IMG/VR virus record: IMGVR_UViG_3300045988_174509
DNA length: 64,000 nucleotides
Reading direction: 5' to 3' (one strand)
Source of the DNA: a virus
Shown piece by piece: positions 24,238-42,339 of the stretch. Positions within the stretch are counted from its first letter, which is position 1. Every line of letters starts with the position of its first letter. A model generated the notes under the pieces. It did not search any database. It was not told the DNA's origin and saw nothing but the letters and a program-made list of their open reading frames with translations. Made by a program: the position numbers and the translations under genes.

Positions 24238-24292
24238 GCCCTGATGATAGAGGCATGCCTAAAGAAAAGCAAGACGGAAAATGGGAAGCCTT

Positions 24293-26081: not shown

Positions 26082-26412
26082 CAGGGTTACGGGTTAGGTT
26101 GTCAAAGTATTTTATTCCATCATCAGAAATTATGTAGGCTTTAGGAAAGGTATCAGGAACTAAAAGGACAAGACCAATGCGCCTCAATGAGCTCAGATAC
26201 TTTCCAATGCTTGCCCGGTCAACCAGATTGGCCGCGGCAATTTCTTTTACAGTCACAGCGGCAGGCTGGAGAAGGATAAAGCAAAGCAGTTTCACTTCCT
26301 TGTGCCGGAGTATGCAGTTACGGTCGTAATGGGCAAAGTAATTAAACAGCAGGCGAGCCTTCGGTTTCACCCGCTCCATTAGGTCCTTCTTTTTTCTCTT
26401 CCAGTTTAGCAT
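26071..26412 (-). CDS. winged-helix DNA-binding protein, paralog family 3 of 3
   Basis: The helix pattern LLCFILLQPAAVTVKEIAAANLVDRASIGKYLSSLRRIGLV...DDGIKYF is shared with 859..1182 and 49397..49690. The track start is TTG 26421; the ATG is at 26412. Confidence 0.4.
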   Translation of the reverse strand: MLNWKRKKKDLMERVKPKARLLFNYFAHYDRNCILRHKEVKLLCFILLQPAAVTVKEIAAANLVDRASIGKYLSSLRRIGLVLLVPDTFPKAYIISDDGIKYFDNLTRNPDGH

Positions 26413-27540: not shown

Positions 27541-27653
27541 ATTGTACTAATGGTTAATAACGTCAAGGAATCCGGGAATCTGGAATTCACGGAACCAGGA
27601 GGTCAAAAACTCCTTGGCTTGCATTAAGGTAAGTAACTTCATGATGATTTATG

Positions 27654-27666
27654 TTGAGGTTCTAAC
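27654..27666 (-). promoter_or_regulatory. conserved leftward motif instance (GTTAGAACCTCAA)
   Basis: Member of the recurring motif with consensus TTTAGAATCTCAAC (minus-strand sense). It lies 11 nt upstream of a possible 31-aa ORF start at 27642. Confidence 0.4.
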
Positions 27667-27679
27667 AAGTTCTAGTGGT

Positions 27680-28252
27680 TTATCGCAAGAAGTAGATAGT
27701 ACATGGGGAACCCGGAATCAGGGAATCAGGGCGCGTCCAGACCTTCAAAGGCTTTAATACCGAATAGGCGGACCGGACATCGTAAAGCATTTGAGAAAGA
27801 TACAGGAGCACCTTTTCAAAACTGCTCACTTGAGCGGCCCCGATTACAACATTGCGGTTCTGGCTTGAGACTTCAATGAAATAACATCCCCGCTCTTCCA
27901 TCTTGTACACGTCCGCTTTGATCACTTCCTTGAGAGGGAGAGCCAGCTCATTCTTCTGGGGCTTCCCCGCCCATCTAAGGCCAAGGATATGGGAGGCATG
28001 CGGACCAAGAACCTTATCAACCTCCTTCTTTATAAGCTTTGACACTGCATCCATCACGATCGTAAGGTCTTCATCCGTGTCAGATGGGGCCGGAGTAATG
28101 AATTGATCTATGGCAAGATAATTGGTAGGGGCCTGAAAGGTGCCGGAGAAATGAATCCTCGCTTCATATCCCGGCAGGTCTTTGGTGATCTTCTTCCATG
28201 CCCCCAAAGCTGCCCGAAGGAATTTCCAATCGGCATCATTAAATTTAATCAT
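27680..28252 (-). CDS. hypothetical protein
   Basis: 190-aa ORF with ATG start, overlapping the upstream gene in ATGATTAA. Confidence 0.45.
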   Translation of the reverse strand: MIKFNDADWKFLRAALGAWKKITKDLPGYEARIHFSGTFQAPTNYLAIDQFITPAPSDTDEDLTIVMDAVSKLIKKEVDKVLGPHASHILGLRWAGKPQKNELALPLKEVIKADVYKMEERGCYFIEVSSQNRNVVIGAAQVSSFEKVLLYLSQMLYDVRSAYSVLKPLKVWTRPDSLIPGSPCTIYFLR

Positions 28253-28643
28253 GATTTTTAATGGCTGTTTTACGTTGAGATTCTAAAGACAGCATTTCTT
28301 TTACAAGTTGCCAGCAAGAAAACAGGTATTGAACTACCCTGTCCATCATCTTGACTGCTGATAAAAGAAGATGGCTTACAGATACATAAACGAAGAACAC
28401 GGCAAGCACATTTAAAAGCAGGGCCATTAGCTTGTCTTCGTTGATCAGGTGATGAATGCTAAACCCAAAAACACTTCCTTCAATGGCGGCTAGAATCCAG
28501 CACCATGATATCCATAATTCAAGAGTCTTGTGAAGGAAATCTCTGAGTTTCCCTGCCTTCAGGTACAGGCCAAGACAAGCGTTCGCCCGTTCGGGCAATG
28601 GAAATCTCAGAAGATACTTGCTCAGAAGTTTATGCGGTTTCAT
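28245..28643 (-). CDS. hypothetical membrane protein
   Basis: 132 aa with 2-3 hydrophobic helices. Its ATG is directly abutted by the conserved TTTAGAATCTCAAC motif. Confidence 0.4.
   Translation of the reverse strand: MKPHKLLSKYLLRFPLPERANACLGLYLKAGKLRDFLHKTLELWISWCWILAAIEGSVFGFSIHHLINEDKLMALLLNVLAVFFVYVSVSHLLLSAVKMMDRVVQYLFSCWQLVKEMLSLESQRKTAIKNHD
28275..28288 (-). promoter_or_regulatory. conserved leftward motif instance (CTTTAGAATCTCAA)
   Basis: Inside the 3' end of 28245..28643, 22 nt upstream of the ATG of 27680..28252. Confidence 0.4.
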
Positions 28644-28905
28644 GTTGAGATTCTAAAGGGGTTAAGCACACGTGGATATGCCGGGCGGTTCCCGGGGCTT
28701 TGAGCTCCAGCTCAAAGCCCCCTGCCAGTAGCTTGCGGTTTGCTTTCCGCAAGTCGGCAAGAAGGAACCTGCTGTTTTCTACCAGGATTTTTCTTCTCCC
28801 ATCAGAAAAAATTTCAATGGCCCCCATGGTGTGATGCGCCTGAAAGAATTCGTTTAGGATTTCTTTCACTTCCTGTTCTGTCAGTTTATTTGAATGGTAA
28901 AGCAT
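28630..28905 (-). CDS. hypothetical protein
   Basis: 91-aa ORF, ATG start. Confidence 0.35.
   Translation of the reverse strand: MLYHSNKLTEQEVKEILNEFFQAHHTMGAIEIFSDGRRKILVENSRFLLADLRKANRKLLAGGFELELKAPGTARHIHVCLTPLESQHETA
28645..28659 (-). promoter_or_regulatory. conserved leftward motif instance (CCTTTAGAATCTCAA-C-ATG)
   Basis: It abuts the ATG of 28245..28643. Confidence 0.45.
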
Positions 28906-29240
28906 GACTCTTTGATCATCTGTAGGGTTGGAATAATTTACAGGGGCTCATAGTGGTCCCTAAAATAGAACCGCCTGCCCTGAAAGAATCATTCAAAAGA
29001 TTATCCATGATCTGCTGGCTCTTGATAAAATTGATATGACTCCTTATCAACTTTTGGGACTCCATTGAAAGGATTCTTGAGCGTAGAATGTGGAAGTTCC
29101 CGGCTTAAATGGGTTTTTGGTATTCATGATTATGATTTCTTTCTATTTAGTATTGGTTAGCGCGGCGATCTTGCCGCATGTCTTCACTGTAGTAAACTGA
29201 TCTGTTTTTACAAGATATTTTTCAAAAAAATTTTCTTACG

Positions 29241-29255
29241 TTGAGCTTCTATAAG
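29241..29255 (-). promoter_or_regulatory. conserved leftward motif instance (CTTATAGAAGCTCAA)
   Basis: It lies 10 nt after the stop of 29266..30252, and begins a ~330 nt stretch containing only very small ORFs. Confidence 0.35.
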
Positions 29256-29265
29256 TTATGCAATT

Positions 29266-30252
29266 CTATTTCATGTAGAATTTGAATTTTGTCTCACCCT
29301 TTTCAGAATCTTCCGTCACTCGGATGCGCTTCAGAAGGAACGGGAAAACTTCGTTGCACTTGGCTTCCACCTTGTCGAGAATTTCCGTTGGAACTTCAGG
29401 CATTTCAGGACTGGGAGATTTCCAGACAAGATAGCCGTAATATTGTGTGAAGGGAACAAAGGAAGCACTTGCTCCAACTTCCTTTCCGAGCTCCTCGAAT
29501 ATTGCATTCACGTCCTGACTAAGCACAGAATAAAATTCCTGCATTTTTTCAAGGGCGTCATCCAAGCAAAGATTCTCTACTTTATGGAACACGTACTGGG
29601 AAAGGTTCCCCTTCTCATTTACCACAAGATTTTTATTCAGGGATCGCCACACACACACCTTATATTTTCCCGGTGCACTGTCTTCCATGTGCTGAACCGT
29701 AAGGAAGAAGGGAGCGGAAGGAATCCTGATTGCCAAGTCACTTTCCAGAATCCGGGAAGCATGAAGCCTTTCAATGGGAATCCGGGGAACAGAAGTCAGG
29801 GGACCAAGGGAGAGAACAATAGAAAGGTTCCGTTTATAATTGTTAAACTTCTCTCTTGGAGAATTTTCTTGGTAGAACTCTTCTATTTTTTCAATCTCTC
29901 CTTCCCGGGAGAAGAACGCAAGCACTCTTTCATGGTCATTTGTTATTTGAGCATGCGCCTTGCGTGTCTCGAGAGTTGGATTGAAACAATGCGATTCAAC
30001 CCATACCGAATATTCTCTTGGCTTTTTTAGCCGGAGAATGAGACGGATAGCTCTTTCATTAGGTTCAAACAAGCCATAGTAGCGAAGTGACAAGGTTTTC
30101 ATTTCTCCTTCCCGCGGATTTTTCCGCTTAAAGGTGACGCGGAACAACTTTCTAGGATTGGCTTCAGGGATTCCATAAGGCTTTACGCCGTTCTTCTCCC
30201 ATTTAACGCTGAAAGAAATATCCATGCCTTCGAGTAATGATTCAGTTTCCAT
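29266..30252 (-). CDS. hypothetical protein
   Basis: 328-aa ORF, ATG start. Confidence 0.45.
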   Translation of the reverse strand: METESLLEGMDISFSVKWEKNGVKPYGIPEANPRKLFRVTFKRKNPREGEMKTLSLRYYGLFEPNERAIRLILRLKKPREYSVWVESHCFNPTLETRKAHAQITNDHERVLAFFSREGEIEKIEEFYQENSPREKFNNYKRNLSIVLSLGPLTSVPRIPIERLHASRILESDLAIRIPSAPFFLTVQHMEDSAPGKYKVCVWRSLNKNLVVNEKGNLSQYVFHKVENLCLDDALEKMQEFYSVLSQDVNAIFEELGKEVGASASFVPFTQYYGYLVWKSPSPEMPEVPTEILDKVEAKCNEVFPFLLKRIRVTEDSEKGETKFKFYMK

Positions 30253-30292
30253 ATTATTTTTAGGTTCTATATATTAGAGGTTCTTTTATTTA

Positions 30293-30742
30293 TTAGCGTT
30301 CTTCTCTTTCAGTTTTGATCTTTATGCTACCTTCGGAAGGAATTTTAGCGATTCTAAACGCAAAATAATAGCCTTTATCCGCATCATGGTAAGAAAAGTA
30401 ATCCTCCAAGCTACTGGTGAAGACCTTTTCCATATTCTCCGTATGTAGCAGGGGGAGAATGCCCTCTCCTATATAAAACTGAAGAGATTGAACGCCTGCC
30501 ATTAAATCCGTTTCAGCTATCACCTGATCTTCAATCACTTTCCCGGTTCGTTCTTCAACAATTTTCCTTAAATTGCATTCAAGAAGATAGCCAAACCATT
30601 CCAAAGGATCAGTAAAATATTCATCCGTAGCCGTTTCATTGGCAAGCTTCAAGCAATAATCTCTTACATGCTCCGATTTGCTTTGCCTTGCCATGTCAAT
30701 CAGCTTCCTAATGGCGGCAAGCCTGTATTCATTTATGTTCAT
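30293..30742 (-). CDS. hypothetical protein
   Basis: 149-aa ORF with ATG start. It is preceded by the conserved leader and a 24-bp perfect palindrome. Confidence 0.4.
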   Translation of the reverse strand: MNINEYRLAAIRKLIDMARQSKSEHVRDYCLKLANETATDEYFTDPLEWFGYLLECNLRKIVEERTGKVIEDQVIAETDLMAGVQSLQFYIGEGILPLLHTENMEKVFTSSLEDYFSYHDADKGYYFAFRIAKIPSEGSIKIKTEREER

Positions 30743-30778
30743 TATATTTAGTCCCTTTCTACTTGTTTTTTGATTCCG

Positions 30779-30802
30779 GCGGGCAGGAAATTTCCTGCCC
30801 GC
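30779..30802. promoter_or_regulatory. 24-bp perfect palindrome GCGGGCAGGAAATTTCCTGCCCGC in 5' region of 30293..30742
   Basis: Seen directly in the sequence. It is flanked (minus sense) by the conserved leader ATCAAAAAACAAGTAGAAAG. Confidence 0.5.
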
Positions 30803-30804
30803 AT

Positions 30805-30819
30805 AGAGATTCTAAAAGG
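30805..30819 (-). promoter_or_regulatory. conserved leftward motif instance (CCTTTTAGAATCTCT)
   Basis: Immediately followed (minus sense) by the 24-bp palindrome 30779-30802, then the conserved leader and the ATG at 30742. Confidence 0.4.
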
Positions 30820-30856
30820 AAATGCGTGAGAAAATGCACTGAACTTAAAAACTCCT

Positions 30857-31036
30857 TCACAAAAGGCGGGCGTTATGCTCTACATACCATTCGGCAGGAT
30901 AAAGGTCCACACCTCCCCTGACTCCCGGATTCTGTGACTCCCGGAATCCCTGAAGCAGGGATACAAACATTTCTGGATCACTCATTTCGTGAGTCAATAC
31001 GGCGGGCGCGGCTTTTTCTTCTATACTAGTGTTCAT
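30857..31036 (-). CDS. hypothetical small protein
   Basis: The track ORF runs to 31081. The internal ATG 31036 reproduces the leader architecture (GTAGAAAG-N12-ATG) seen upstream of 30293..30742. Confidence 0.3.
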   Translation of the reverse strand: MNTSIEEKAAPAVLTHEMSDPEMFVSLLQGFRESQNPGVRGGVDLYPAEWYVEHNARLL

Positions 31037-31073
31037 TTTATGTCTTCTTTCTACTTGTTTTTTGTTTTTTGAT

Positions 31074-31089
31074 CCGCCCATGGGGGCGG
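31074..31089. promoter_or_regulatory. GC hairpin CCGCCC-ATGG-GGGCGG with the same conserved downstream leader
   Basis: Second copy of the hairpin plus (A)TCAAAAAACAAGTAGAAAG module, upstream of ATG 31036. Confidence 0.45.
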
Positions 31090-31160
31090 GGGCATGAATT
31101 TAGATTAGCTTAGTGATTGTATTGTACAATAAAAATAGTAAAGATTTTTGTCATACACGT

Positions 31161-31622
31161 TTACAAGTCATCGAACATGGCGGAAAGGCAGGCGTAATTC
31201 CTTGAGGGATAAAGGCATTCAAACCCTTGCAAGGGGTAGGTGATTTTGATTCCTTTGCAATATATGTTTGCACTGCACGACGGAATGTTCAGCATGCGCA
31301 ACTCCGAAAGAACGGAATTTTTAGCTTGCCTTGCGGCCATTTGCAAGGATGAATCTGAAAAACTGAAAGGGAACTCCCTGATAAATGACGTTTTGTATCC
31401 GGAGTTCTCCAATTCAATGATGATCACCAGCCGGAATTGCGCGCCTTTGGCGTCATGATACTCTAGCGGAAGAAACTCCCGGCAATTTTGTGTCATGTTC
31501 CACACGTCCAATGCTCCTCTATTCATAAGACTTTGAATCACGGAGGAAGGGGAACAGGAAGCAGGGAAAGACTTGGAACGGTGCTTTTCCTTTGTAATGT
31601 ATGCGTATTCAATAAGTTCCAT
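31161..31622 (-). CDS. hypothetical protein
   Basis: The track start is TTG 31643. The ATG at 31622 is directly abutted by the conserved motif. Confidence 0.4.
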   Translation of the reverse strand: MELIEYAYITKEKHRSKSFPASCSPSSVIQSLMNRGALDVWNMTQNCREFLPLEYHDAKGAQFRLVIIIELENSGYKTSFIREFPFSFSDSSLQMAARQAKNSVLSELRMLNIPSCSANIYCKGIKITYPLQGFECLYPSRNYACLSAMFDDL

Positions 31623-31625
31623 ATA

Positions 31626-31640
31626 TTGAGATTCTATAAT
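31626..31640 (-). promoter_or_regulatory. conserved leftward motif instance (ATTATAGAATCTCAA-TAT-ATG)
   Basis: It abuts ATG 31622 of 31161..31622. Confidence 0.45.
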
Positions 31641-32935
31641 CAAGATTGTTTCTTTGTAGACCGCCCCCTTGTATCAAACGCCGGGATATTTAATTTTCTC
31701 CTTGCTTTTCCGATAACTTGTATTGATTTGCCTGTTTTATTAGCGACTTCTTTATCAGTCATTGTGCCCAGCAGGGATTTAATGTATTCGTCCCCTTCTA
31801 TTGTTTCTTGCAAGCTTTTTTCCTCACGTAATGCCGGAACATTCAATTTCTGTCTAATTCTTCTTACTGCCTCGTCATCAATATTAAATTTTTCGGCTAT
31901 TACTCTATCATAAACTTTCCCAAGCATAGATAAGAGTTTTTTACGTTGGTCCGGTGAAAATCTTTCTAAAATGCTTTTACTGAAAGGCTTAATTTTGTTC
32001 TGTTCTCTAAATTTTTTAATTACATATACGCTGTACCCTGTTTTTTTTGCAATTTTTAAATCTGATACTCTTCCCAATAAATTAAGAATTATATCCTTGT
32101 CCGCATCCTTAATGGGAGCTGGAGCAATTTTTAATTTTCTACGGTTCCGCGCTACAACATTAAGCGATATTCCAAGCCTTTCAGCAATTTCGCTATCAGG
32201 AATTTTCCCAAGCATGGATAGCATTTCTTCGCGTTTCTCTTCGGGGATTTTAGTATCAGATAATGATAGAATGCCCATCTTTTTTCTAATAAGCGCAATT
32301 CCTGCCTTGGAATAACCGAATTTTTTAGCAATTTCATCATCCGGGGTCTTTCCAAGCATGTTAATTAACTCTTCGGGATACTCTTTTTTCTTGTGTGGTT
32401 TATTTGGGTCTCGTGGCTGACGGGGTTTACGCGGCCCCCTATATGACTTAATCCCTAATTTCTTTCTAAGGTAGGCTACTCTGGAATTTGAGTATCCAAA
32501 CTTCTTGGCACACTCCGAGTCAGGAATTTTTCCGAGCACTGCAATAAGCTCTTCATCGTGTTGGATGCGGATTGCTTCAGGGCTGCAATACTTTTTGATA
32601 CCTAATTTATAGCGTTCAGTCTGGACCGTGACGCGCGCTATTCCGAGTAGCTCGGCGATTTCCAGGTCAGGTTTTTTGCCCAACATGGACCGCATTTCTT
32701 CACGCTGTTCGTGAGAAAGAATGCGGTGAAACCTCTTTTCTCGGTATTTTTCATGCAATAACTCCATGAGCAATTGCATGTATTCAGGCGTGGGATGTGG
32801 TTTTTTAGTATTTAGCCACTTCCAAACAGCATCTTCCGTCACCCGCATCATCTGCGCGGCCCTTTTTACAGCTTGGGTAGGACTTGGGAGATTGTTGGCC
32901 GTTTGAAGCCAGTCGATAAATTCTTGTGCGGTCAT
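31640..32935 (-). CDS. tandem helix-turn-helix repeat DNA-binding protein (8 sigma-70 region 4/LuxR-like HTH modules)
   Basis: 431 aa. About 8 repeats of ~36-40 aa fit the pattern LxxLGKxPDxEIAxKxGxSxxxVxxxRxKLGI. Confidence 0.55.
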   Translation of the reverse strand: MTAQEFIDWLQTANNLPSPTQAVKRAAQMMRVTEDAVWKWLNTKKPHPTPEYMQLLMELLHEKYREKRFHRILSHEQREEMRSMLGKKPDLEIAELLGIARVTVQTERYKLGIKKYCSPEAIRIQHDEELIAVLGKIPDSECAKKFGYSNSRVAYLRKKLGIKSYRGPRKPRQPRDPNKPHKKKEYPEELINMLGKTPDDEIAKKFGYSKAGIALIRKKMGILSLSDTKIPEEKREEMLSMLGKIPDSEIAERLGISLNVVARNRRKLKIAPAPIKDADKDIILNLLGRVSDLKIAKKTGYSVYVIKKFREQNKIKPFSKSILERFSPDQRKKLLSMLGKVYDRVIAEKFNIDDEAVRRIRQKLNVPALREEKSLQETIEGDEYIKSLLGTMTDKEVANKTGKSIQVIGKARRKLNIPAFDTRGRSTKKQS

Positions 32936-32947
32936 GGTGAGAAAGGA

Positions 32948-32966
32948 GGGGCGGCAATGCCGCCCC
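32948..32966. promoter_or_regulatory. GC-rich 9-bp stem/3-nt loop hairpin between the acidic gene and the multi-HTH gene
   Basis: ggggcggca-atg-ccgcccc, 12 nt upstream of ATG 32935 on the minus strand. Confidence 0.4.
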
Positions 32967-32976
32967 TGGGGGTTAT

Positions 32977-33303
32977 TTAGTGAGCTTCAACGCGGGAAGC
33001 GTCCTGCGTCCAGTTGAGGTTTTCTCCTTCAATTTCTTCGCCCGTCATTTGTTCAAAGACCATGTAGATTTCAACCTTGTTCCCTTCTGCATCATAGCCG
33101 GGAGCAGACCATTCTTCCATATAACTGCCGTCTTCGTATTTGTCCGCATAGGAGCCAGGGAAAACCCTGTTGGTGTATTCCATCTGGCGCGCTGCATAGT
33201 AGGTCTTGCCTTCGAACTTGTAGCTGCCAAATTCACGTTCAAGAGCGGTCAGGTTGATTTCTTCTCCGTCTTCCGTGGTGATGATTTTGTTATCGTTCAT
33301 CAT
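32977..33303 (-). CDS. highly acidic small protein (first gene of leftward block)
   Basis: 108 aa with ~24 Asp/Glu against ~9 Lys/Arg. It is the first ORF after the origin-like region. Confidence 0.4.
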   Translation of the reverse strand: MMNDNKIITTEDGEEINLTALEREFGSYKFEGKTYYAARQMEYTNRVFPGSYADKYEDGSYMEEWSAPGYDAEGNKVEIYMVFEQMTGEEIEGENLNWTQDASRVEAH

Positions 33304-33339
33304 TTTTGTAATTCCTTTCTTTCAGGTTTTATTCTTGGC

Positions 33340-33356
33340 AGGGCGTTGCGCCCTTG
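33340..33356. promoter_or_regulatory. 6-bp stem/3-nt loop hairpin AGGGCG-TTG-CGCCCT upstream of first leftward gene
   Basis: It lies ~40 nt upstream of ATG 33303 and is followed (minus sense) by GAAAGAAAGG-N13-ATG. Confidence 0.35.
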
Positions 33357-34377
33357 CATGATTTTTTGATAGCATTACGGAGGGTTCCGTTCAACCGATT
33401 TTTTGCAGGGAGCCGGCAAGTGATTTAAAATGAAAGGATTATAATTGTGTCATACAAGGTGTAAAAAAGTGTGAAAAGGTGCTTGCAATGTAAAAATCCG
33501 GCATTTGCGGCACAAAAATCCAGCGTCAAAATCAGGCATGGGGGAGTATCGTAAAAAGTACAATAAGCCATGAAGCCGGGAAACCCGGGTTCCGGGTTCC
33601 GGGTTTGGAGGATTAGGCAATAATTGAGGCAGGTGCAAAAGCAGGAATGATTCATAAAATTTTATGGCTGGTGTCCCATATTTGAGCCGGATTCCATAAA
33701 ATTTTATGGAACTTTGGACAGTTTCAGGGTGTCAGGTATAAAATTTTGTAAAAGCAGGGAGAGGCGGGTGCAGGGCGTCAGGGTAACTTAGAATCAGGGA
33801 GTCAGGGGATCAGTTTGGAGGATTAGGCAAGAATTTGAGAAGAAAGGAAGGCCCTTCTTTTCTTCTCATATCATCAACGTATCATGATATGTTGATATGT
33901 TATGATTCACAAGCAAGCCCGCAATTTATACAGGCGTATAAATATGCACCCCTGAACCCCTGATTCCGCCCTTCCCTGCACCCCGCTTCACACGTCAAAA
34001 AATACAATAACCCCCCTATTTCCGGCTATGGAAAAATTCAAACGTAACATAATGGATTGAATCTTAACGTCTAGCACGTTCATACTTCGCATAATATGTG
34101 TAATGCAAAATCGGAAGCACGATTCAGGCATAACAAGAAAATACATAAGAAGTTATGAAGGAAATTACCCTGAAATTGGAAGCCGATTTCCGCCATACGG
34201 GAGGTTTACAGGGCCAGGGGTTCAAGGTTAGAGTGGCTCAAAGGTTCAGGGTTCGAGCAACTCTAACCCGGAATCAGGAAACATACCACCACGGTTGAGG
34301 GGGCTCACGGGTTCAGCGAGTGGAGGTATAAATCTTTGGGTCGGGAATGCCCTGGAGGAACCATTTTTGGAGAAAGG

Positions 34378-34510
34378 GGGATGTATGGACCTAGAAGGCG
34401 GGTTTACCCCCAGTTGGGTACTCTGTACCGGACCTACCCCAAAACACAGTTTTAGGCGACCACCCTACATGAAAAAACCGTATTCTGGCATGAGCATGGT
34501 TCCCAGGCAT
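34378..34510. repeat. ~130-bp direct repeat, copy 1
   Basis: The last ~85 bp are near-identical to 34666-34750. Each copy contains AAAACaCAGTTTT and begins with ATGGACCTAGAAGGCGGGTTTACCC. Confidence 0.6.
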
Positions 34511-34617
34511 GCGTAAAGGGCGGATACCACCACGGGGGAAGGGGTGGAACTTGGGAACCGGAAAGGGCGGGATCAGGGGTTCAGGGGGTCGGAAAAAATC
34601 GGTGAAAACGGAAAAAT

Positions 34618-34750
34618 GGGAGGTATGGACCTAGAAGGCGGGTTTACCCTCTTTCCGCTACAGAGTACTGGACCGACCCCAAAACGCAGTTTTAGGCGAC
34701 CACCCTACATGAAAAAACCGTATTCTGGCATGAGCATGGTTCCCAGGCAT
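34618..34750. repeat. ~130-bp direct repeat, copy 2
   Basis: As copy 1. The middle ~30 bp segment is replaced while the flanks are identical. Confidence 0.6.
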
Positions 34751-34839
34751 CCTCGCGTGCGCATGCGCGTAGGCATGGGCATGGGCTGGCAGGGGTCGGC
34801 ATACATGTCGGAAGAAAGGTCGGAAAAAGGGTCGGCATG

Positions 34840-34930
34840 AGCGGGGCTCGCCTACGCATACGCGTACGTACGCGCACATGGCCCGCGTCACCCGCGCATG
34901 TGTGGGCATGTGCAGGCGTATGCGCTCGCC
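34840..34930. repeat. GC-rich alternating purine/pyrimidine tract (CGCATACGCGTACGTACGCGCACATG...)
   Basis: Seen directly in the sequence: CG/CA/TG dinucleotide alternation with imperfect inverted repeats. It immediately precedes the AT-rich block. Confidence 0.5.
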
Positions 34931-34959
34931 CGCCTCAGCGCGCCCAGGAAACTTTTATA

Positions 34960-35050
34960 ATTCAATATTATAATAAAACCCATATATATATATATAGTAT
35001 TTTTTAACTTTTTTATTTTTAGGGTTCTTGTATTGATTTTTAACGAGTTA
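34960..35050. repeat. AT-rich block with (AT)7 at 34982-34996 (DNA-unwinding-element-like)
   Basis: Seen directly in the sequence. Confidence 0.5.
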
Positions 35051-35152
35051 TGAAGACGGATTTTGTGAAGTGAAAAGTCAGAGCCCCTTTTCACATGCCT
35101 TGACAAAAATGGAAATATGTATGAATTTGGTCTTTTTTATACTTTAGAAATT

Positions 35153-35168
35153 AGAATGATTCTAAAAA
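35153..35168 (-). promoter_or_regulatory. degenerate motif instance (GTTTTTAGAATCATTC) pointing leftward into the origin-like region
   Basis: No convincing downstream ORF. It would direct transcription into the AT-rich/(AT)7 tract. Confidence 0.25.
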
Positions 35169-35187
35169 CTTTTACATACTTTTTTTA

Positions 35188-35324
35188 TCGACATTTTTAC
35201 GACATTTTTACGACGTTTTTTTGACCCCATTTTTGACCCCATTTTTGACCCCATTTTTGACCCCATTTTTGACCCCATTTTTGACCCCATTTTTGACCCC
35301 ATTTTTGACCCCATTTTTGACCCC
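35188..35324. repeat. phased A/T-tract tandem repeats: CGACATTTTTA x3 (11 bp) then TTGACCCCATTT x8.7 (12 bp)
   Basis: Perfect copies counted in sequence from 35221. The antisense 82-aa MGSK-repeat ORF is an artefact of this array. Confidence 0.7.
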
Positions 35325-35388
35325 CTGAATCCGTGATTCCGCCCTCCCGTTCCACCTCCATTTTTGACCCCCTGAATCCGTGATTCCG
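35314..35388. repeat. direct repeat TTTGACCCCCTGAATCCGTGATTCCG x2
   Basis: Two copies ~48 bp apart, just upstream of the primase-helicase start. Confidence 0.5.
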
Positions 35389-35483
35389 GATACCTCCGGA
35401 CCCCCGTCACCGGAAACCCCTTTTTATTTTTCTCTTGACAGGATTTCCGTCCGGATTATCCTGGCTCCACATTAATACATCCC

Positions 35484-38400
35484 ATGACACCCCTATATAT
35501 CGACGACATTCATATCTCTATTGCCGCCCCATCCGCCCCGCAGTGGCTCACTGCCATGGACGTAAACAAAAGGTTCTACCATGTCGGTCATTGCAATAAT
35601 GCCTTTAATGCGGGGCTGAAGGCTATTGCCCTTGGCTGGATGAAATTTGAGGACGCAGAAGGCTTTCCGCTCACTCCCGATTTGCGCAGATGCGGCTATA
35701 TGTGCGACGCCTATGCAATGGACAAGGGCGTGAAACTTCCCGCCCTCCTGCCTGATGCCTATATAGATAGTATTTCCAAATGGCGGGAAATCTCCCCCGA
35801 GGCGGGCATCCCCAAATCCGTGCTCCCAGCCTTCGTGCCGTCAGTCTCCTTCAATTACAAGTTCATTCGCAAATGGCAGAAGGACAACCAGGATGACCGG
35901 AAGAAGTACCTGAGCGCGAAAGCCTTGGCCGGACGCGATCCCCGGGCGTGGAGCCATACGGGCCTGTTCTGCATTGACATTGACGCCGGGCACGACGGAA
36001 ACCCTGAAGCCCCTGACGCCCTGTACGCCCAGGCCCATGCCAATGGCGCCTTCTCCCTGATGCCCGGATTCCTTTTTTCCTTTGCATCCCCGAATCAGGG
36101 AATCAAGCTGATGTTTAAAGTGGACCCGGTTCTGCTCGCGCTTCTCAATACCCCGGAAGGATGCGGAGATGCGGACCTGGAATCCCCGGAAGTATCGGGG
36201 GAAGCCCTCGCCCGGGTGCAGTCTTTGCGCGAGAAGAACCACGCCATATGCTTTTACGCTATCGCCGCGATGGTTTCCCGCCATACCGGGCTTGCCGTGG
36301 ATTTATCCTGCTCCGATCCCTGCCGCCTCCAGTTCATGTTCCGGGCCCATGCCTCCCGGTATGAGCTCAATCCCTGTCTCCTTGATTCCGAAGTCCCGGA
36401 TTCCCTGCTTCCTGGGTTCAGCATCGACGGAGCCGATGCATGGAGGGAGTATGAGGAGACAGCCGCCCGCCGCGGAGCCGGAGGCTCCGCTGTGCAACCC
36501 CGGAATTTTGAGCCCGGAAAAGACAATAAGCCCGACAGTATTTTGAGGTTTGCCGACTGGCTCAAATCCAGGGGGTGGCTGAAGGAAGCCCAGCACGTTT
36601 TGGACATGACTCCCGGACCCCGGGGCTATTATTCGTTCTGCCTCCAGTGCCGGGATGTAAGCAGTACGCCTTCCGGACCTCGTGACTTGCTCCTGTGGCT
36701 TGACAGGGATTCCCCCGGGAGGTTCGGCTTCAAGTGCCTGCATGAATCCTGCCAGAGCCGGGCCAAGGTCAAGTACCCGTTCTGGTATCTGGCAAAGCTC
36801 TACCATGAGGAGCAGGAGGCGTTGAAGATTGCCCATGAGGCATCCAATTCCTATCAGGTGCCTGAGCCCATCCGCAAGTTCATCCGCACCAGAAGCGAGC
36901 TCTCCGAGCACAAGATCATCATTGGGAACATCGGGATGGTCCAGTCCTCCTTCAAGACTCCCGATGCCCTGCCGAACCTGTTCGAGTGGGATGAGAAGAC
37001 CGGAGCCCTGCTTACTACGGCCCTGAATGTGTCGGGCTATGTGCGCCACTGCATGGGATTGTATCCCGTATATAACAAGGACCTGTGCTGTAACGAGTTC
37101 ATTTCTCCGGATACGGGCATGTGCTTCCCGTTTGACGCGGTGCGCAAGGCCGTCCTCGGCTACTTCATGACCCGGTGCAACAAGGACGTGTCCAAGCAGT
37201 TTCTTTTTACCTCCCTGCATGAGGCCCAGGGCCTTTCCTATTCGCCGCTGTTTGCGCTGGGGTACTGGGAGGAGTGGGACGGAGTTCCCCGGGTGGACCA
37301 GTATATCGACCTGCTGGAGTGGGACCCGGCCCACCAGCCGCCTAAAATCTTAAAGGAGGATGGCACGCCCATGTCGGGGCAGGAGTGGAAGCGGCATGCC
37401 CTGCGCTCCTGGCTGGTGAATTGCTGGGAGCGCACCGTCTGCTCGGTGATCGGCTCGGACAAGGTGCCGACCTTCGGTGGCCGCCCCTCGCACCTGATGC
37501 CGGAAAACAAGATGATCATCCTCTGCTCGGAGACCCAGGGGGTGGGCAAGACCCAGTGGGTGAAGGGGCTGGTGGGGAGCAAGGCCCAGGAGTCGCTGGT
37601 CATTGCCGATAAGCTGGAGCAGAGCAAGGACCATGACAAGATTTCGGCCATCAAGCCGATCTTTTTCCTTGACGAGATGGAGAAGACTACGAAGAACGAG
37701 GAGATGAACTCGCATCTCAAGATGGTGCTGACCCGGAGCCACATTGACATTCGTGATCCCTATGAGAAGGACATCATGCACAGGAAGGTGGTGACTTCCT
37801 TCATCGGGGCGACCAACGAGCCAAAGCCTTTGAGTGATGCCGATGGAAGCCGCAGGCTTGTGTTGCTTTATGTGAGGAGGCCCGCCGATAAGATGGGCAG
37901 TGTAGGCAATTGCCCCGAGCATGTGAAGGAGATGCAGTCGCTCAATGTCGCCCAGTTCTGGGCCGAGATCAAGTACCTGTCCGAAACGGCCAAGCCCGGG
38001 GAGTATGCGCTGACGCCCCAGGAGACCAATCTTGTGCATTACAACCAGACCACGGCTTTGGAGAACGGGGAGTTCAACCACCTCGTATCCTACCTCCGCT
38101 TCATTCCCTCAAACTACCCGGCGGCGGACGGGAAACAGCTCCGCAAGATGATCAACGGGGCGTACAACGATCCGGCCAATATCATCAATTCGGTCCGCAG
38201 GTATCTCGGGGAGCGGGAGATCAAGGTCTCCTGGCGCGGGAGCAAGCAGTTCCGCCAGCATCTTCTGGCCCAGGTGCCCGAGGGGTGCTCTCCCACCTAC
38301 TATACAGGCAAGCGCGGGTCTCCCCGTGTCGCCCTGTACCCGGTTATGCTTGAATCCGAGTTCGAGCTTCTGGCCTCCGATACAGCCAGGAAATCCTGGG

Positions 38401-38570
38401 CTCGGGACAACCCGGAGGAGGCGGCGAAGTATTACAAGCGGATCAAGTTCGGCCTGGGAGATGGTTCCCTGGTTGACGTGGACCCGGCGCAGGCCGAGAA
38501 GCTGGACATCTACAAGCCCTACTATGACCAGTATATGGAGGACAGTCTGGAAAATGAGGACGAGGAGTAA
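35484..38570 (+). CDS. primase-helicase (AEP-type primase/polymerase fused to D5-like SF3 helicase)
   Basis: N-terminal LFCIDIDAGHDG (AEP hhhDhD motif), Cys/His cluster CLQCRD...CLHESC, Walker A ETQGVGKT and Walker B-like VTSFIGATNE. 1,028 aa. Confidence 0.7.
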   Translation: MTPLYIDDIHISIAAPSAPQWLTAMDVNKRFYHVGHCNNAFNAGLKAIALGWMKFEDAEGFPLTPDLRRCGYMCDAYAMDKGVKLPALLPDAYIDSISKWREISPEAGIPKSVLPAFVPSVSFNYKFIRKWQKDNQDDRKKYLSAKALAGRDPRAWSHTGLFCIDIDAGHDGNPEAPDALYAQAHANGAFSLMPGFLFSFASPNQGIKLMFKVDPVLLALLNTPEGCGDADLESPEVSGEALARVQSLREKNHAICFYAIAAMVSRHTGLAVDLSCSDPCRLQFMFRAHASRYELNPCLLDSEVPDSLLPGFSIDGADAWREYEETAARRGAGGSAVQPRNFEPGKDNKPDSILRFADWLKSRGWLKEAQHVLDMTPGPRGYYSFCLQCRDVSSTPSGPRDLLLWLDRDSPGRFGFKCLHESCQSRAKVKYPFWYLAKLYHEEQEALKIAHEASNSYQVPEPIRKFIRTRSELSEHKIIIGNIGMVQSSFKTPDALPNLFEWDEKTGALLTTALNVSGYVRHCMGLYPVYNKDLCCNEFISPDTGMCFPFDAVRKAVLGYFMTRCNKDVSKQFLFTSLHEAQGLSYSPLFALGYWEEWDGVPRVDQYIDLLEWDPAHQPPKILKEDGTPMSGQEWKRHALRSWLVNCWERTVCSVIGSDKVPTFGGRPSHLMPENKMIILCSETQGVGKTQWVKGLVGSKAQESLVIADKLEQSKDHDKISAIKPIFFLDEMEKTTKNEEMNSHLKMVLTRSHIDIRDPYEKDIMHRKVVTSFIGATNEPKPLSDADGSRRLVLLYVRRPADKMGSVGNCPEHVKEMQSLNVAQFWAEIKYLSETAKPGEYALTPQETNLVHYNQTTALENGEFNHLVSYLRFIPSNYPAADGKQLRKMINGAYNDPANIINSVRRYLGEREIKVSWRGSKQFRQHLLAQVPEGCSPTYYTGKRGSPRVALYPVMLESEFELLASDTARKSWARDNPEEAAKYYKRIKFGLGDGSLVDVDPAQAEKLDIYKPYYDQYMEDSLENEDEE

Positions 38571-38578
38571 AAAATCTC

Positions 38579-38606
38579 TTGACATTTTCCCCTGATATTG
38601 TAGGAT
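38579..38606 (+). promoter_or_regulatory. sigma70-like promoter TTGACA-N16-TAGGAT
   Basis: It starts 9 nt after the primase-helicase stop. It drives a short ORF-less transcript that ends at terminator 38666-38706. Confidence 0.4.
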
Positions 38607-38611
38607 TCTCC

Positions 38612-38706
38612 TGATTTGAGGCTTTTCGGTGTCGGCTTCATGTCTTCATTCTATGTATTGGGAAAGCCCCGGAGCAGAAAGATTTGCTCCGGGGCTTTTT
38701 TTTTTT
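38612..38706 (+). ncRNA. candidate small RNA 1 (promoter 38579-38606 to terminator 38666-38706), ~95 nt
   Basis: A promoter-terminator unit with no ORF of 60 aa or more. Confidence 0.3.
38666..38706 (+). terminator. rho-independent terminator (perfect 11-bp GC stem, T11)
   Basis: gccccggagca-gaaagattt-gctccggggc followed by 11 T. Confidence 0.7.
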
Positions 38707-38707
38707 G

Positions 38708-38737
38708 TTGACAATCTCCCTCCCCTGATGCTATGTT
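38708..38737 (+). promoter_or_regulatory. sigma70-like promoter TTGACA-N15-TGcTATGTT
   Basis: It starts 2 nt after the T-run of the preceding terminator. Confidence 0.45.
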
Positions 38738-38742
38738 TCACG

Positions 38743-38889
38743 TTGTCGGGGCTCCGGGATGCAGGGAATCATGGACGATGAAAGACTCGTAGGAACTTGG
38801 ATTCCCTTTCCCACCCGCCCCCAGCCCAAATCGCTCCCATGGTAGAGAACCCGCATGGTTAAACGCGCCATGCGGGTTCTTTTTATTTT
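38743..38889 (+). ncRNA. candidate small RNA 2 (~145 nt)
   Basis: Promoter 38708-38737 to terminator 38847-38889. Only a possible 24-aa micro-ORF inside. Confidence 0.3.
38847..38889 (+). terminator. rho-independent terminator (12-bp stem, T-run)
   Basis: gaacccgcatgg-ttaaacgcg-ccatgcgggttc then ttttatttt. Confidence 0.65.
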
Positions 38890-38895
38890 CTTCTC

Positions 38896-38924
38896 TTGAC
38901 ATTCCGCCCCAAATGTGATAGATA
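38896..38924 (+). promoter_or_regulatory. sigma70-like promoter TTGACA-N14-TGaTAGATA
   Basis: It follows terminator 38847-38889. Confidence 0.4.
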
Positions 38925-38930
38925 TGGCGC

Positions 38931-39147
38931 ATGCAGTTGGGGGAAGTCCTTCCCGGGCTTCCGTCCGAGCACGCCTTCAGGTGTGCCGCCCAAAGGCTAG
39001 GAACCTGATACAGTAATGGCACTGTGGATGTTTATTCATTTCAGGTTTCGTCTCCTTTCTACTCCCGACATTTGCTGTACTGCTCAATCAGTTTTTGTTG
39101 TATTAGCATAAGAATCTCCCCTGGTTCATTCCGGGGGAGATTTTTTT
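38931..39147 (+). ncRNA. candidate small RNA 3 (~215 nt)
   Basis: Promoter 38896-38924 to terminator 39115-39147. The 73-aa track ORF that crosses the terminator is unlikely to be real. Confidence 0.25.
39115..39147 (+). terminator. rho-independent terminator (7-8 bp stem, T7)
   Basis: tctcccc-tggttcattcc-ggggaga then ttttttt. Confidence 0.55.
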
Positions 39148-39183
39148 CTTTACTTATTAGCTCCATTTGGCATATTCCAGCAC

Positions 39184-39918: not shown

Positions 39919-40484
39919 CCCGGGACCCGGAAAGAGTCCAGCAGGCCAGCCTTCTGCTGAGGGAGATTCTTAAAAGGAAGCATGTCAAGATTGAAGAAGT
40001 ACCAATTTATTACGGAGAGGAGTCAAGATTTGAAATAAGGTTCGGCTGGTTTTATTCCAGGAGAATTCTCTTGAGGATAGAGAAGCGTCGGGGAACCGAA
40101 GATGGTCCCGATCTGGATCGTATCTATGCGGGAGAACCAAATGACCTTGATGTTTTTATGTACGTTGGCTGGCGGGAGGCTTTTTATTGCCGGGTTCCTA
40201 ATTTTTTGCTCCAGCGTTTCCTGAATAGGATGGCCTATGAGGCAGATAAAGGATTGAAAAAAGAGGACGAAAAAGAGATAAAGGTCGCTAAAAGGGTTTT
40301 TGGAATTTATTCCAGGAAGCTTCGCTTGCCTGATTTGTATTTTGCAGAGAACACAGAGGCCGCATGGGATTTTATTTTTAAAAATAATTACGATACCAGC
40401 AAGCTTTCCAAATGGGATATAAAAAAGATGCACCAGGAATATCTTGAATTGAAAAAATTCAAAAAAGAACATACTAATGACTAA
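39891..40484 (+). CDS. hypothetical protein
   Basis: 197-aa ORF, ATG start. It ends 8 nt into the polymerase gene. Confidence 0.4.
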   Translation: MHLEHDNSIARDPERVQQASLLLREILKRKHVKIEEVPIYYGEESRFEIRFGWFYSRRILLRIEKRRGTEDGPDLDRIYAGEPNDLDVFMYVGWREAFYCRVPNFLLQRFLNRMAYEADKGLKKEDEKEIKVAKRVFGIYSRKLRLPDLYFAENTEAAWDFIFKNNYDTSKLSKWDIKKMHQEYLELKKFKKEHTND

Positions 40485-42339
40485 TACAAGAGAGACGATT
40501 GAGACAATTCCGGGTCTCTGCATGGAGATTGTGGAAGATTGTCACGAGATTGATGGAGACGTTATTTTCTGGGACACGGAAACTTTCTACAGCAAGGAAT
40601 ATTCCGTCGAGAATACCGATGCCCGGACTTACTGTGCGGACCCCCGCGGCTATTGCTACATTATTTCCGTGACGGATGGCAAGCGGGTCTGGTCCGGAAC
40701 TCCGAAGGATTTTGACTGGGAGATTGTCCGGGGCAAGAAGCTCTGCGCCTTCAACCAGAACTTCGACGCCGCTGTTTATTACTTCATGCTGGGAGCCCCC
40801 GGGGATTCTCCCATGAGTGGCTGGCTCTGCGCCAAGGCCGCCTGCAATTACCTGGGACTTTACGGTTCCCTGGCCGAGCTCATTGAGAAATGCTTTGGAG
40901 TTCAGGTCAGCAAGGATGTCCGTGATGCCGCCGAGGGCGTGGACTTCAGCAAGCTGGACAGCATTCCGGTTGACATGATCCGCTATGTGTGCATGGACTC
41001 CTATTATGGCTGGGCTCTGTGGGACCGTTTCGGCAAGTATTGGCCGGAGGACGAGAGGGAGCTCTGGTGGGCTACGGTAGAGATGTCCTGGAAGGGCTCT
41101 CCTACCTCCCTGGAGTTCCTGGACAAGGGGCTTGCGGTGATGGAGAAGGCGCGTGATGCCTACAAGGAATCCATCCCGCTGGAGGAGACTCTTTCCCTTC
41201 CCCAGCTTAAAGCCAAGTGCGTGGAAGCTGGAGTCCCTGCTCCTGAGTCCACGGCCAAGACCAGCAAGGTCTGGCAGGATTGGCTGGATGAATATGGAGA
41301 GCAGGTTCCCTGGGTCCGCAATATTGCCCGGTACCGGAGTGCCAACCGTCTCCTTTCCCAGTTCCATCAGATTCGCCCCCGGGTGTACATGAGCGACGAA
41401 GGGTTTGAGCGGCTTCCGGCTACACTCACCTATTGTGGGGCCACTACGGGACGTTGGACGAGCGGTGGGGATCATTTCAATGTCCAGCAGTTGAACCGCA
41501 ATGAGGTTGAAGGGTTTGACATTCGCGGCATCATCCGGGCCCCGGAAGGTTATTCCCTGGTGTTCTGTGACTGGGCCCAGATTGAGGCGCGCATCATTGC
41601 GTGGTATGTGGGCCAGGACGAGATTCTGGTCCCACTTCGTGAGGGGGCTTCCGACCTCTACGCCCTGTATGCGAAAGCCTGGAACCTTCTCCCCCAGGAG
41701 GTGGAGCACTTTGAAGAGTGGTGCAAGCTTCCCGGCAATGATCCCATGCTCCGGCAAGTGGTGAAGGCTGGTGCCCTGGCTTGCGGATTCGGCCAGCGGG
41801 CTGCGGGGCTCCATGCTAAAAATCCCCATATGACCATGGAGCAGTGTGAGTTTATTGTGGATACATACCATCAGAAGAATCCCAAGGTGCTGGCTTGGTG
41901 GGAAACCCTGAAGGAAAAAATCCGCAGGGGGGCCCTCTCTTCCAGCAAGTCCTTCTCCATTCAGCTTCCCTCGGGGCGCACCCTGTATTACCGGGGCCTG
42001 TTCAAAAAGCTCTGCCAGTCCTCCAAGGGCAAGCCCTACTGGGCCTGGGCCTACAAGCCAAACAAGTTTTCTACCCGGGTTGTCAATGTCTCCCTGCTGT
42101 CAAACAATGTCGTCCAGGGCATTGCCCGCGACCTGATGAAGAATACGGTGCTTGAAATGCGCAGGCAGGGATGCCCTGCATTCGTGATCATCCATGACGA
42201 AGGCGGCTTCCTGGTGAAGGACGAAGACCTGGATCACATGGTCCCCCTGATTAAGGGAGTCATGGAATCCGTGCCTCCGTGGGCCGAAGGTCTCCCTCTT
42301 CTGGCTGAACCTAAAGTGCTCAAAGTGTACAAGAAATGA
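40477..42339 (+). CDS. DNA polymerase, family A, with 3'-5' exonuclease domain
   Basis: Exo I FWDTET, Exo II NQNFDAAVY, Exo III YVCMDSYY. Pol motif A FCDWAQIEARIIAW, motif B RQVVKAGALACGFGQ, motif C VIIHDEGGF. Confidence 0.8.
   Translation: MTNTRETIETIPGLCMEIVEDCHEIDGDVIFWDTETFYSKEYSVENTDARTYCADPRGYCYIISVTDGKRVWSGTPKDFDWEIVRGKKLCAFNQNFDAAVYYFMLGAPGDSPMSGWLCAKAACNYLGLYGSLAELIEKCFGVQVSKDVRDAAEGVDFSKLDSIPVDMIRYVCMDSYYGWALWDRFGKYWPEDERELWWATVEMSWKGSPTSLEFLDKGLAVMEKARDAYKESIPLEETLSLPQLKAKCVEAGVPAPESTAKTSKVWQDWLDEYGEQVPWVRNIARYRSANRLLSQFHQIRPRVYMSDEGFERLPATLTYCGATTGRWTSGGDHFNVQQLNRNEVEGFDIRGIIRAPEGYSLVFCDWAQIEARIIAWYVGQDEILVPLREGASDLYALYAKAWNLLPQEVEHFEEWCKLPGNDPMLRQVVKAGALACGFGQRAAGLHAKNPHMTMEQCEFIVDTYHQKNPKVLAWWETLKEKIRRGALSSSKSFSIQLPSGRTLYYRGLFKKLCQSSKGKPYWAWAYKPNKFSTRVVNVSLLSNNVVQGIARDLMKNTVLEMRRQGCPAFVIIHDEGGFLVKDEDLDHMVPLIKGVMESVPPWAEGLPLLAEPKVLKVYKK

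Follow-up and report, generated by a model that had tools for sequence, protein, structure and literature searches.

A repeat-dense, two-module intergenic region upstream of the primase-helicase gene of an uncultivated gut phage as a candidate replication origin and control region

The DNA studied here, 64,000 nucleotides from the IMG/VR virus record IMGVR_UViG_3300045988_174509 (hereafter the window), contains between two divergent genes a repeat-dense region of 2.2 kb (hereafter the gap), which we describe as a candidate replication origin and control region. The source is an uncultivated human-gut phage with a genome of about 68 kb, almost the whole of which is represented by the window, and ENA contig ERZ1689230 NODE_54 (68,154 bp) is 99.7% identical to the window over the 15 kb surrounding the gap. 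The gap is flanked by a minus-strand gene encoding a 108-aa protein (ATG at 33303) and by a plus-strand gene encoding a 1028-aa protein (start at 35484), and thus lies, as the initial annotation had proposed, at the divergence point of a leftward small-gene block and a rightward block of replication, packaging and structural genes headed by a primase-helicase gene. The small genes occupy about 23165-33303 on the minus strand and their sampled proteins match no phage protein family, except for a protein with multiple helix-turn-helix (HTH) motifs. From 35484 on, the plus strand carries the replication genes, followed by the packaging and structural genes: the primase-helicase gene is followed by those of PolA (40477-42339), an SNF2-type helicase and a DUF2800 nuclease, and the terminase gene is found at 46606, 11 kb from the gap. 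A search of INPHARED gave no phage record resembling the window or the DNA of the gap. Among deposited phages, the best match of PolA reaches only 27% identity and none was found for the terminase, and no phage or prophage copy was found by protein and DNA-pattern searches in the 185,579 bacterial and archaeal species genomes of GTDB.

The 1028-aa protein is the presumed initiator. Its VapE-like domain, of the superfamily 3 (SF3) helicase type, was detected with an E value of 4e-18, and the protein also matches DUF5906 and PHROG helicase and primase families. We infer that its N-terminal part is a primase. Residues 1-587 and the C-terminal 195 aa, searched as isolated parts, gave no match in Pfam, and searches of the PDB by sequence and by profile returned no relative of the protein. 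An AlphaFold2 model obtained from a 5-sequence alignment was unusable (mean predicted local distance difference test score of 36.8).

Related phages were retrieved, with primase-helicases 62-98% identical. Five lineages besides that of the window were recovered, whose primase-helicases share about 94%, 88% and 62-64% identity with that of the window, and four lineages, the window included, span the gap. Pattern scans of IMG/VR for homologues of the gap found only contig 175860. L039, which matched the scan made with the array unit of L017, was discarded as a homologue, being an unrelated phage without similarity to the window.

Between 33370 and 35483 (2114 nt), no open reading frame (ORF) of at least 100 aa is present on either strand, and the next largest gap of this kind in the window measures 622 nt, which bears out the description of this region as the only long non-coding stretch in 64 kb. 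A scan of the 64 kb with Rfam 15 gave no match at the gathering score, only chance-level matches to microRNA and U6atac families were seen (E = 0.5-8), and a scan for tRNA and transfer-messenger RNA genes found none. Hidden genes were also considered and rejected. An in-frame ORF running across both units of a 240-bp duplication (177 aa in 175860) shows, relative to 175860, 13, 14 and 13 substitutions at the three codon positions and does not keep its stop codon; a 47-aa ORF proposed by the gene caller is shifted in frame in L026, across the most conserved bases; and the minus-strand ORFs called in the gaps of L026 and L029 are mutually inconsistent. Because there is no match to an Rfam family or tRNA, no codon-position bias, and neither frames nor stop codons are kept across lineages, the gap is, judged by its sequence, non-coding DNA under constraint. 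Its identity to 175860 reaches 90-98% between 34200 and 35200, as in the neighbouring genes, and is 75-81%, with indels, between 33300 and 34200. The features that had been listed for the gap, namely the arrays, the (AT) run, the alternating tract and the direct repeat, are all present where they had been placed, far beyond chance expectation (Table 1).

Table 1. Features of the gap and its presumed initiator gene (positions refer to the window).
Feature	Position	Strand	Remarks
Whole ORF-poor divergent region	33304-35483		No longer stretch free of ORFs of at least 100 aa in the window
Left module, palindrome-rich	33358-34342		88% identical to L026
Leftward sigma-70-like promoter TTTACA-16-TATAAT, 11/12 matches, facing the small-gene block	33438-33465	-	In a block kept in L014 and L026
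Operator-like palindromes CATAAAATTTTATG (33653-33666) and TCCATAAAATTTTATGGA (33693-33710)	33653-33710		Half-matching third copy at 33734-33748
Inverted repeat, 19-nt arms, 89% complementary	33833-33871		Conserved in L014 and L026
24-bp palindrome ATCAACGTATCATGATATGTTGAT	33873-33896		Conserved in L014 and L026
Palindrome TTTATAC-AGGC-GTATAAA	33925-33942		Conserved in L014 and L026
Core block	34081-34342		Kept in all four lineages; hairpin at 34221-34273 and box ATACCACCACGG
240-bp tandem duplication	34283-34522 / 34523-34762		Last 138 nt of each unit 89% alike
GC-rich alternating purine/pyrimidine tracts of 18, 28 and 12 nt	34754-34904		Z-DNA-prone by composition
GTCGG x4, exact 12-bp spacing (34795, 34807, 34819, 34831)	34795-34835	-	Reverse complement of the right-hand T5-N-CGAC units
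AT-rich block, candidate DNA-unwinding element	34948-35250		Holds (AT)7.5 at 34982-34996
Palindrome TTAGAATGATTCTAA	35151-35165		TTAGAATCATTCTAA in L026
11-bp array TTTTTACGACA x3.5	35182-35220	+	Tandem Repeats Finder; four units in L030 and L033
12-bp array TTTTTGACCCCA x8.9	35218-35324	+	Tandem Repeats Finder, 100% matches, score 214
31-nt direct repeat x2, CCATTTTTGACCCCCTGAATCCGTGATTCCG	35311-35388	+	Inverted counterpart at 34564-34595
Primase-helicase gene promoter TTGACA-16-TATCCT	35435-35462	+	-10 hexamer 21 nt before the gene start
1028-aa protein, presumed initiator	35484-38570	+	VapE/D5-type (SF3) helicase domain, residues 676-855

The right module, taken as 34343-35483 in the lineage comparison, contains an origin-like segment at about 34790-35400. 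Its identity to 175860 (90-98%) is on par with that of coding DNA. On the left side of this segment, the four GTCGG units can be aligned with the T5-N-CGAC units with an alignment score of 22, a value that none of 500 shuffled sequences reached (mean 11.4, maximum 21). These units interrupt the GC-rich tract, a point missing from the initial annotation, and about 100 bp of this tract separate them from the AT-rich block. The tract had been described as alternating purines and pyrimidines over some 90 bp, and this was borne out by perfect runs of 28 nt (34853-34880), 18 nt (34754-34771) and 12 nt (34893-34904) and by a z-score for alternation of 4.85 in the 200-nt segment 34725-34924. Together with the AT run, these three runs account for 4 of the 6 alternating runs of at least 12 nt in the window, in which 3e-5 runs of at least 26 nt are expected. 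The alternating GC tract was found only in the lineage of the window and in 175860. Formation of a single-strand hairpin by this tract was considered and rejected, as it folds no better than shuffled sequences (z = 0.02).

The AT-rich block, with its (AT) run slightly longer than the (AT)7 first reported, has the lowest duplex stability in the 64 kb whether measured over 100, 200 or 300 bp (z = 3.6-4.3), and positions 34950-35199 are 98.4% identical in 175860. It is followed by the two arrays, whose existence was confirmed with marginally more units than the 3 and 8.7 first counted. The copy number of the 12-bp array is unreliable, since the 99.7% identical contig has 4 units fewer. The motif T4+..GAC is concentrated in the gap, which holds 12 of its 23 plus-strand copies in the window and 4 of the 6 copies of the inverse motif, and three of the four plus-strand G-quadruplex motifs of the window are also located there. 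The -35 box of the primase promoter lies about 45-250 bp downstream of the arrays.

The initial annotation had further suggested that the repeats are phased at about one helical turn and should bend the DNA intrinsically. We calculated R, the vector sum of the T-tract phases against a helical repeat of 10.5 bp, and obtained a value of 0.16 for the 12-bp array and a moderate value of 0.60 for the 11-bp array. Being out of helical phase, the 12-bp array should give no simple planar bend, and its axis would rather, on geometric grounds, follow a superhelical path. The minus strand of this array is also a (G4 N8)n tract with G-quadruplex potential. Its repeat unit differs from phage to phage: TTTTTGACCCCA in the window, TTTTTTGACCCC in 175860 and TTTTTGCCCCTG in the relative whose primase is 88% identical, with GACCCCA, GACCCC with an extra T, and GCCCCTG as respective variants, while only the T5 and C4 runs and the period of 12 bp are constant. 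The array undergoes concerted evolution, all units carrying one lineage-specific variant (window 35218-35324, L014 1-110, L017 1-55). It was not retained as a CRISPR-like array, its 12-bp units having no spacers.

The comparison of lineages indicates that this organization extends beyond the closest relatives. L014, L026 and L029/L035, whose primases are 62-94% identical to that of the window, all contain an ORF-poor gap of 1.5-2.4 kb at the matching divergent position, with leftward small genes on one side and the primase-helicase, PolA, SNF2-helicase and DUF2800-nuclease genes on the other. The order of elements in the right module is common to the lineages and consists of a G-rich stretch, an (AT)n run in an AT-rich block, short repeats in two orientations and a promoter. 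In L026, L028 and L029, the (AT)n run and AT-rich block stand in the matching position and are followed by short repeats in both orientations and then by a TTGAC promoter, of which the -35 box CTTGAC(A/T) (CTCTTGAC in 3 of 4) and the TATnnT element are conserved. A match to an integration host factor site, WATCAANNNNTTR, had been spotted by eye in these same three sequences and was dropped, as it is not kept in the window. The layout of the right module is thus constant and its sequence lineage-specific. The repeat cores themselves are CGACAT and T5GACCCC in the window, and GACAC, GGACAT and GGACAC in other lineages; such lineage-specific cores are expected if the repeats co-evolve with the initiator.

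Taken together, the anatomy and conservation of the gap lead us to regard it as a composite control region of two modules, in which the segment 34790-35400 is the likeliest seat of the replication origin, with chances that we consider about even. In favour of this proposal, the least stable duplex of the 64 kb lies between oppositely oriented short repeats, the module stands directly upstream of the conserved promoter of an SF3/VapE-helicase gene, and the layout is retained without the sequence in lineages where the primase-helicase is only 62-64% identical. The initial annotation had assigned the origin to the whole region; this would hold only for its right-hand third (about 34790-35400), the left 1 kb being a separate control module. 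Likewise, of the combination of iterons, GC block, AT-rich unwinding element and bent DNA that had been put forward, the AT block, the repeats and the GC tract are present, while the G-rich iterons are irregular and the long array is unphased. A repeat-rich, AT-rich gap beside replication genes is what phage biologists expect of an origin.

By analogy with known initiators, a mechanism can be proposed in which the right module would be read, from left to right, as four inverted GTCGG units, a GC-rich alternating tract, an AT-rich unwinding element of about 250 bp, direct arrays of T5-N-CGAC and T5-GACCCC units, and the promoter with its SF3 gene. The helicase protein, produced in cis from the adjacent promoter, would bind the short repeats flanking the AT block, assemble there as oppositely oriented hexamers and melt the block; its N-terminal part would then synthesize primers and the phage PolA would extend them. 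Binding to the arrays, located just upstream of the helicase's own promoter, would autoregulate its synthesis as in iteron plasmids, the arrays thus doubling as autoregulatory sites. Since this phage lineage has no cultured relative, the candidate origin and control region provides experimenters with a defined fragment and the protein that goes with it, and the candidate origin could serve as a marker for read-depth (replication-activity) analyses in gut metagenomes.

Several known systems share part of this organization. The Rep helicases of staphylococcal pathogenicity islands (SaPIs) recognise iterons of 5-6 nt placed in opposite orientation on either side of an AT-rich centre, self-load there, and have their origin immediately downstream of rep (PMC9371898). 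As in SaPIs, the gene of a presumed ring-helicase initiator with an SF3-type domain adjoins the candidate origin of the window, and inverted short repeats (GTCGG x4 versus T5-N-CGAC) flank the AT block. The fusion of primase and helicase in one polypeptide, as in SaPI5, is only presumed for the window protein. Unlike the compact SaPI origin, the candidate occupies about 600 bp and additionally includes the GC-rich alternating tract and a 9-unit 12-bp array, and a winged-helix domain was not found in the window protein by the Pfam and PDB searches. In satellite phage P4, a single polypeptide, the alpha protein, unites a primase, an SF3 helicase and, at its C terminus, a winged-helix domain that binds the origin (PMC2777425). 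No sequence similarity to P4 was detected, and the alpha domain deposited as 1KA8 is not matched by the window protein. Replication of P4 also depends on crr, a second cis element composed of two direct repeats of about 120 bp carrying iterons. The two 138-nt repeats of the gap recall crr, although they lack a clear T5-N-CGAC core, and the elements are contiguous here whereas the ori and crr of P4 are 4.5 kb apart.

In iteron-containing theta plasmids (RK2 oriV, pSC101, pPS10), direct repeats lie by an AT-rich unwinding element, next to a rep gene with an autoregulated promoter, and a GC-rich block is present in RK2 oriV as well. The gap likewise has the AT block first, then the arrays, the promoter and the initiator gene. 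However, plasmid iterons are 17-22 bp long and spaced by about two helical turns, whereas the units described here measure 11-12 bp, form a long array that is out of phase (R = 0.16) and are not conserved between relatives, and no cluster of DnaA boxes accompanies them. The origins of phages of lactic acid bacteria (lactococcal c2, Streptococcus thermophilus Sfi21-type) are AT-rich segments of non-coding DNA dense in repeats; that of c2 lies at the early/late divergence point and requires an untranslated transcript, and that of Sfi21 lies beside a VapE-type primase gene. They measure 0.3-0.6 kb compared to 2.2 kb here. The gap resembles the SaPI, P4, iteron-plasmid and lactic-acid-bacteria phage origins yet is not assignable to any one of them, because of its upstream position, its partly unphased 11-12-bp units and its extra elements (the Z-DNA-prone tract, the 240-bp duplication and the 9-unit array).

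A number of observations weigh against an origin at this site. The candidate is located upstream of its initiator gene, on the side opposite to that of the SaPI origin. Neither Pfam nor PDB searches found a DNA-binding domain, including a C-terminal winged helix, or a primase domain in the helicase protein. There is no cluster of DnaA boxes, the gap containing a single box with one mismatch (TTATCGACA, within unit 1 of the 11-bp array) without enrichment in the window. In the distant lineages, the enrichment of the repeat cores is marginal, with 4-5 copies compared to a maximum of 4-5 in shuffled sequences. The divergence of the 12-bp unit between close relatives argues against a strictly sequence-specific iteron, and in sequence terms this array seems to suit structural or slippage-driven DNA better. 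In addition, the cumulative GC skew, proposed as a check, reaches minima near -0.10 at 11-13 kb and near -0.09 at 36-37 kb; it tracks gene orientation, by which it is confounded, and is uninformative, neither supporting nor refuting an origin in the gap. Finally, AT-rich and repeat-rich intergenic DNA beside promoters can be purely regulatory.

This last point is best considered together with the left module. The latter has 88% identity with L026, against only 67% for the primase DNA and 76% for PolA of that phage; in 175860, a phage otherwise 94% identical, the module is only 75-80% identical, with indels. These values imply that the left module moves between lineages independently of the primase gene, so the regulatory half of the gap is, on the evidence of these alignments, exchanged independently of the initiator-linked half, which makes the modular gap a clean example of mosaic evolution in non-coding control DNA. 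Because of its richness in palindromes and its independent exchange, the left module is best read as a putative transcription-control hub: its palindromes, of which the core ATAAAATTTTAT is retained in L014 and L026, would be operators for dimeric regulators, and the module would govern the divergent early (leftward) and replication (rightward) operons. G-rich iterons had been described at about 33570-33830 and 34200-34330. The short motif is indeed enriched 5-7 times, the gap (3.4% of the sequence) containing 5 of the 21 copies of KTCAGGG and 4 of the 24 copies of CCCTGAM in the window, while its spacing is irregular and does not form a regular iteron array. An origin role of the motifs at 33570-33830 is not supported, as they fall in this separate, palindrome-rich module that is exchanged apart from the primase gene.

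The regulatory role could be extended to the whole 2.2 kb, which would then serve purely for transcription control through divergent promoters, operators and arrays tuning the primase promoter, with the origin located elsewhere, for example inside a gene. We consider this somewhat unlikely. The gap, for its share of the sequence, is rich in perfect palindromes (7 of the 28 in the window), has strong promoter matches at both edges and a left module that travels separately from the primase gene, all in line with such a role. The arrays, made of A-tracts or T-tracts, may function as UP-like or architectural DNA, or else as series of -35-like boxes: they lie at the above distance from the -35 box of the primase promoter, TTGACC occurs in every 12-mer with a 5/6 match to the -35 hexamer, and it is the T5/C4 character and the 12-bp period that are conserved rather than the unit sequence. 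However, pure transcription control leaves unexplained why the weakest duplex and the inverted repeats keep a conserved layout beside a helicase gene, as well as the approximately 1 kb of constrained non-coding DNA between the promoters (34200-35180). Moreover, one region may serve both in regulation and as an origin, as it does in iteron plasmids.

The centre of the gap consists of the core block and the 240-bp duplication. The core hairpin has a 13-pair stem with one compensatory pair (G-C to A-U), and the two strands of the core fold better than shuffled sequences (z = -2.6 and -2.7). The direct repeat of about 130 bp seen at first corresponds to 138 nt with 89% identity (34373-34510 and 34613-34750) and turned out to be the conserved 3' part of the 240-bp units, both copies of which are also carried by 175860. 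Each unit contains one hypervariable segment of about 30 nt (34410-34446 and 34650-34686), in which 10 of 32 bases differ from 175860; their centres, GTAC-TCT-GTAC in copy 1 and CTAC-AGA-GTAC in copy 2, look like a flipped hairpin loop. A diversity-generating retroelement was rejected, the alignment of the two 138-nt copies showing no adenine-specific differences, and no reverse-transcriptase domain was found among the 30 ORFs of the window that were scanned.

These elements raise the possibility that the gap is a non-coding RNA locus, 34081-34940 being transcribed into one or several structured RNAs that would act as a replication primer, as a regulator or through guide-like variable loops. 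The nucleotide-level conservation without codon signature, the frame of the 47-aa ORF that is not kept between lineages, the conserved hairpin with its compensatory pair, the folding scores and the hypervariable segments within conserved 138-nt units are consistent with such a locus. We nevertheless regard it as quite improbable: no Rfam family matches, no convincing promoter or terminator brackets the region, and the RNA covariation term of the 138-nt units is about zero on both strands. In addition, both strands of the core fold equally well, as expected of an inverted repeat acting at the DNA level, and the core is represented by only two effective sequence types. Like pure transcription control, an RNA locus would be compatible with an origin role. 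A further idea, which we view as a long shot, is that the constrained centre (the 34081-34342 core, the 240-bp units and the alternating GC tract) acts via its structure, either as a new class of structured phage RNA with guide-like loops or as non-B DNA gating the opening of the AT block under supercoiling. Candidates for non-B DNA are the alternating tracts, Z-DNA-prone by composition, and the (C4 N8)n array, whose strand (GGGGTCAAAAAT)n could form a G-quadruplex or an i-motif.

The origin assignment must also be confronted with the fact that the short-read contigs of relatives mostly break within the gap, the 12-bp array being the commonest site. The gap could accordingly be a genome terminus or packaging region, the arrays marking physical ends, such as a terminal repeat or a concatemer junction, or a pac/cos site bound by the small terminase. 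In many independent assemblies, the contigs of close relatives end in or near the 12-bp array, and T7 and SPP1 are examples of phages in which short-repeat arrays and bent DNA adjoin the ends or pac sites. Yet the contigs that start in the array carry 4-5 units, about one assembler k-mer, a contig of 68,048 bp has both ends within the array, one assembly reads through it with four fewer units, and other contigs instead break within the 240-bp repeat or stop at the opposite end of the 12-bp array. These observations are as expected of a tandem repeat left unresolved in a circular assembly graph. The breaks at the array are accordingly read as an assembly artefact, and a physical genome end as their cause was rejected on the k-mer-sized starts and the read-through assembly. 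Considering also that the terminase gene is 11 kb away and that transcription diverges at the gap, a terminus or packaging site appears highly improbable. For short-read assemblies of this phage family, the 12-bp array, the 240-bp duplication and other repeats of the gap are the points of breakage or collapse, which has consequences for completeness calls and for the flagging of 'terminal repeats' in viral databases.

The left edge of the non-coding region is occupied by a different gene in each lineage. In the window, positions 31639-33300 correspond to a two-gene cassette of 1671 bp that encodes the 108-aa protein and the multi-HTH protein, of 431 aa, which matches DNA-binding families of the homing-endonuclease type. 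This cassette is found with 96-99% identity in 11 otherwise unrelated IMG/VR contigs (98.4-98.8% in 9 of the 11) and is missing from the close relatives 175860 and 169882; it resembles a mobile cassette whose insertion point coincides exactly with the left boundary of the gap. It was not retained as a dedicated partner of such gaps, since in L003, the one other contig examined, it stands in another context without a repeat-dense gap. At the right end of IMGVR_UViG_3300045988_169882 (L020 1-347), a relative 97.6% identical to the window, a wholly different sequence is present where the cassette and the gap of the window begin, and the contig ends there; the gap of this genome is either replaced or unassembled.

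Another intergenic region, 38571-39183, follows the primase-helicase gene. The -35 box of the primase-helicase promoter also heads two units of this region, where TTGACA -35-like boxes are found at 38579, 38709 and 38896, two of them within the motif TCTCTTGACA, together with three strong terminators made of a hairpin and a T run (38663-38698, 38846-38880 and 39110-39145). These are candidates for two or three small-RNA or micro-gene units, none of which matches Rfam. The region was not favoured as a rival origin site, as it contains promoters and terminators and neither iterons nor an AT block. In the L028 and L029/L035 lineages, a gene directly downstream of the primase-helicase gene (L035 8001-9107, L028 3759-4862) encodes a 367-368-aa paralogue, 46% identical, of the helicase and C-terminal half of the protein; this gene is missing from the window. 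Similarly, a gene of the IS605 OrfB/TnpB type, with a Cas12f1-like_TNB domain, lies between those of the SNF2-type helicase and the DUF2800 nuclease in L026 (15837-17033) and is absent in the window.

Finally, two features were observed in other parts of the window. A 920-nt block of the leftward gene block (27555-28466) has 97.7% identity with L026, a phage in which the replication genes share only 67-76%, and looks like a recent module exchange. The structural-gene block contains a single ORF of 3407 aa (12277-22500) with a high GC content of 55-62% and a strong AT skew.

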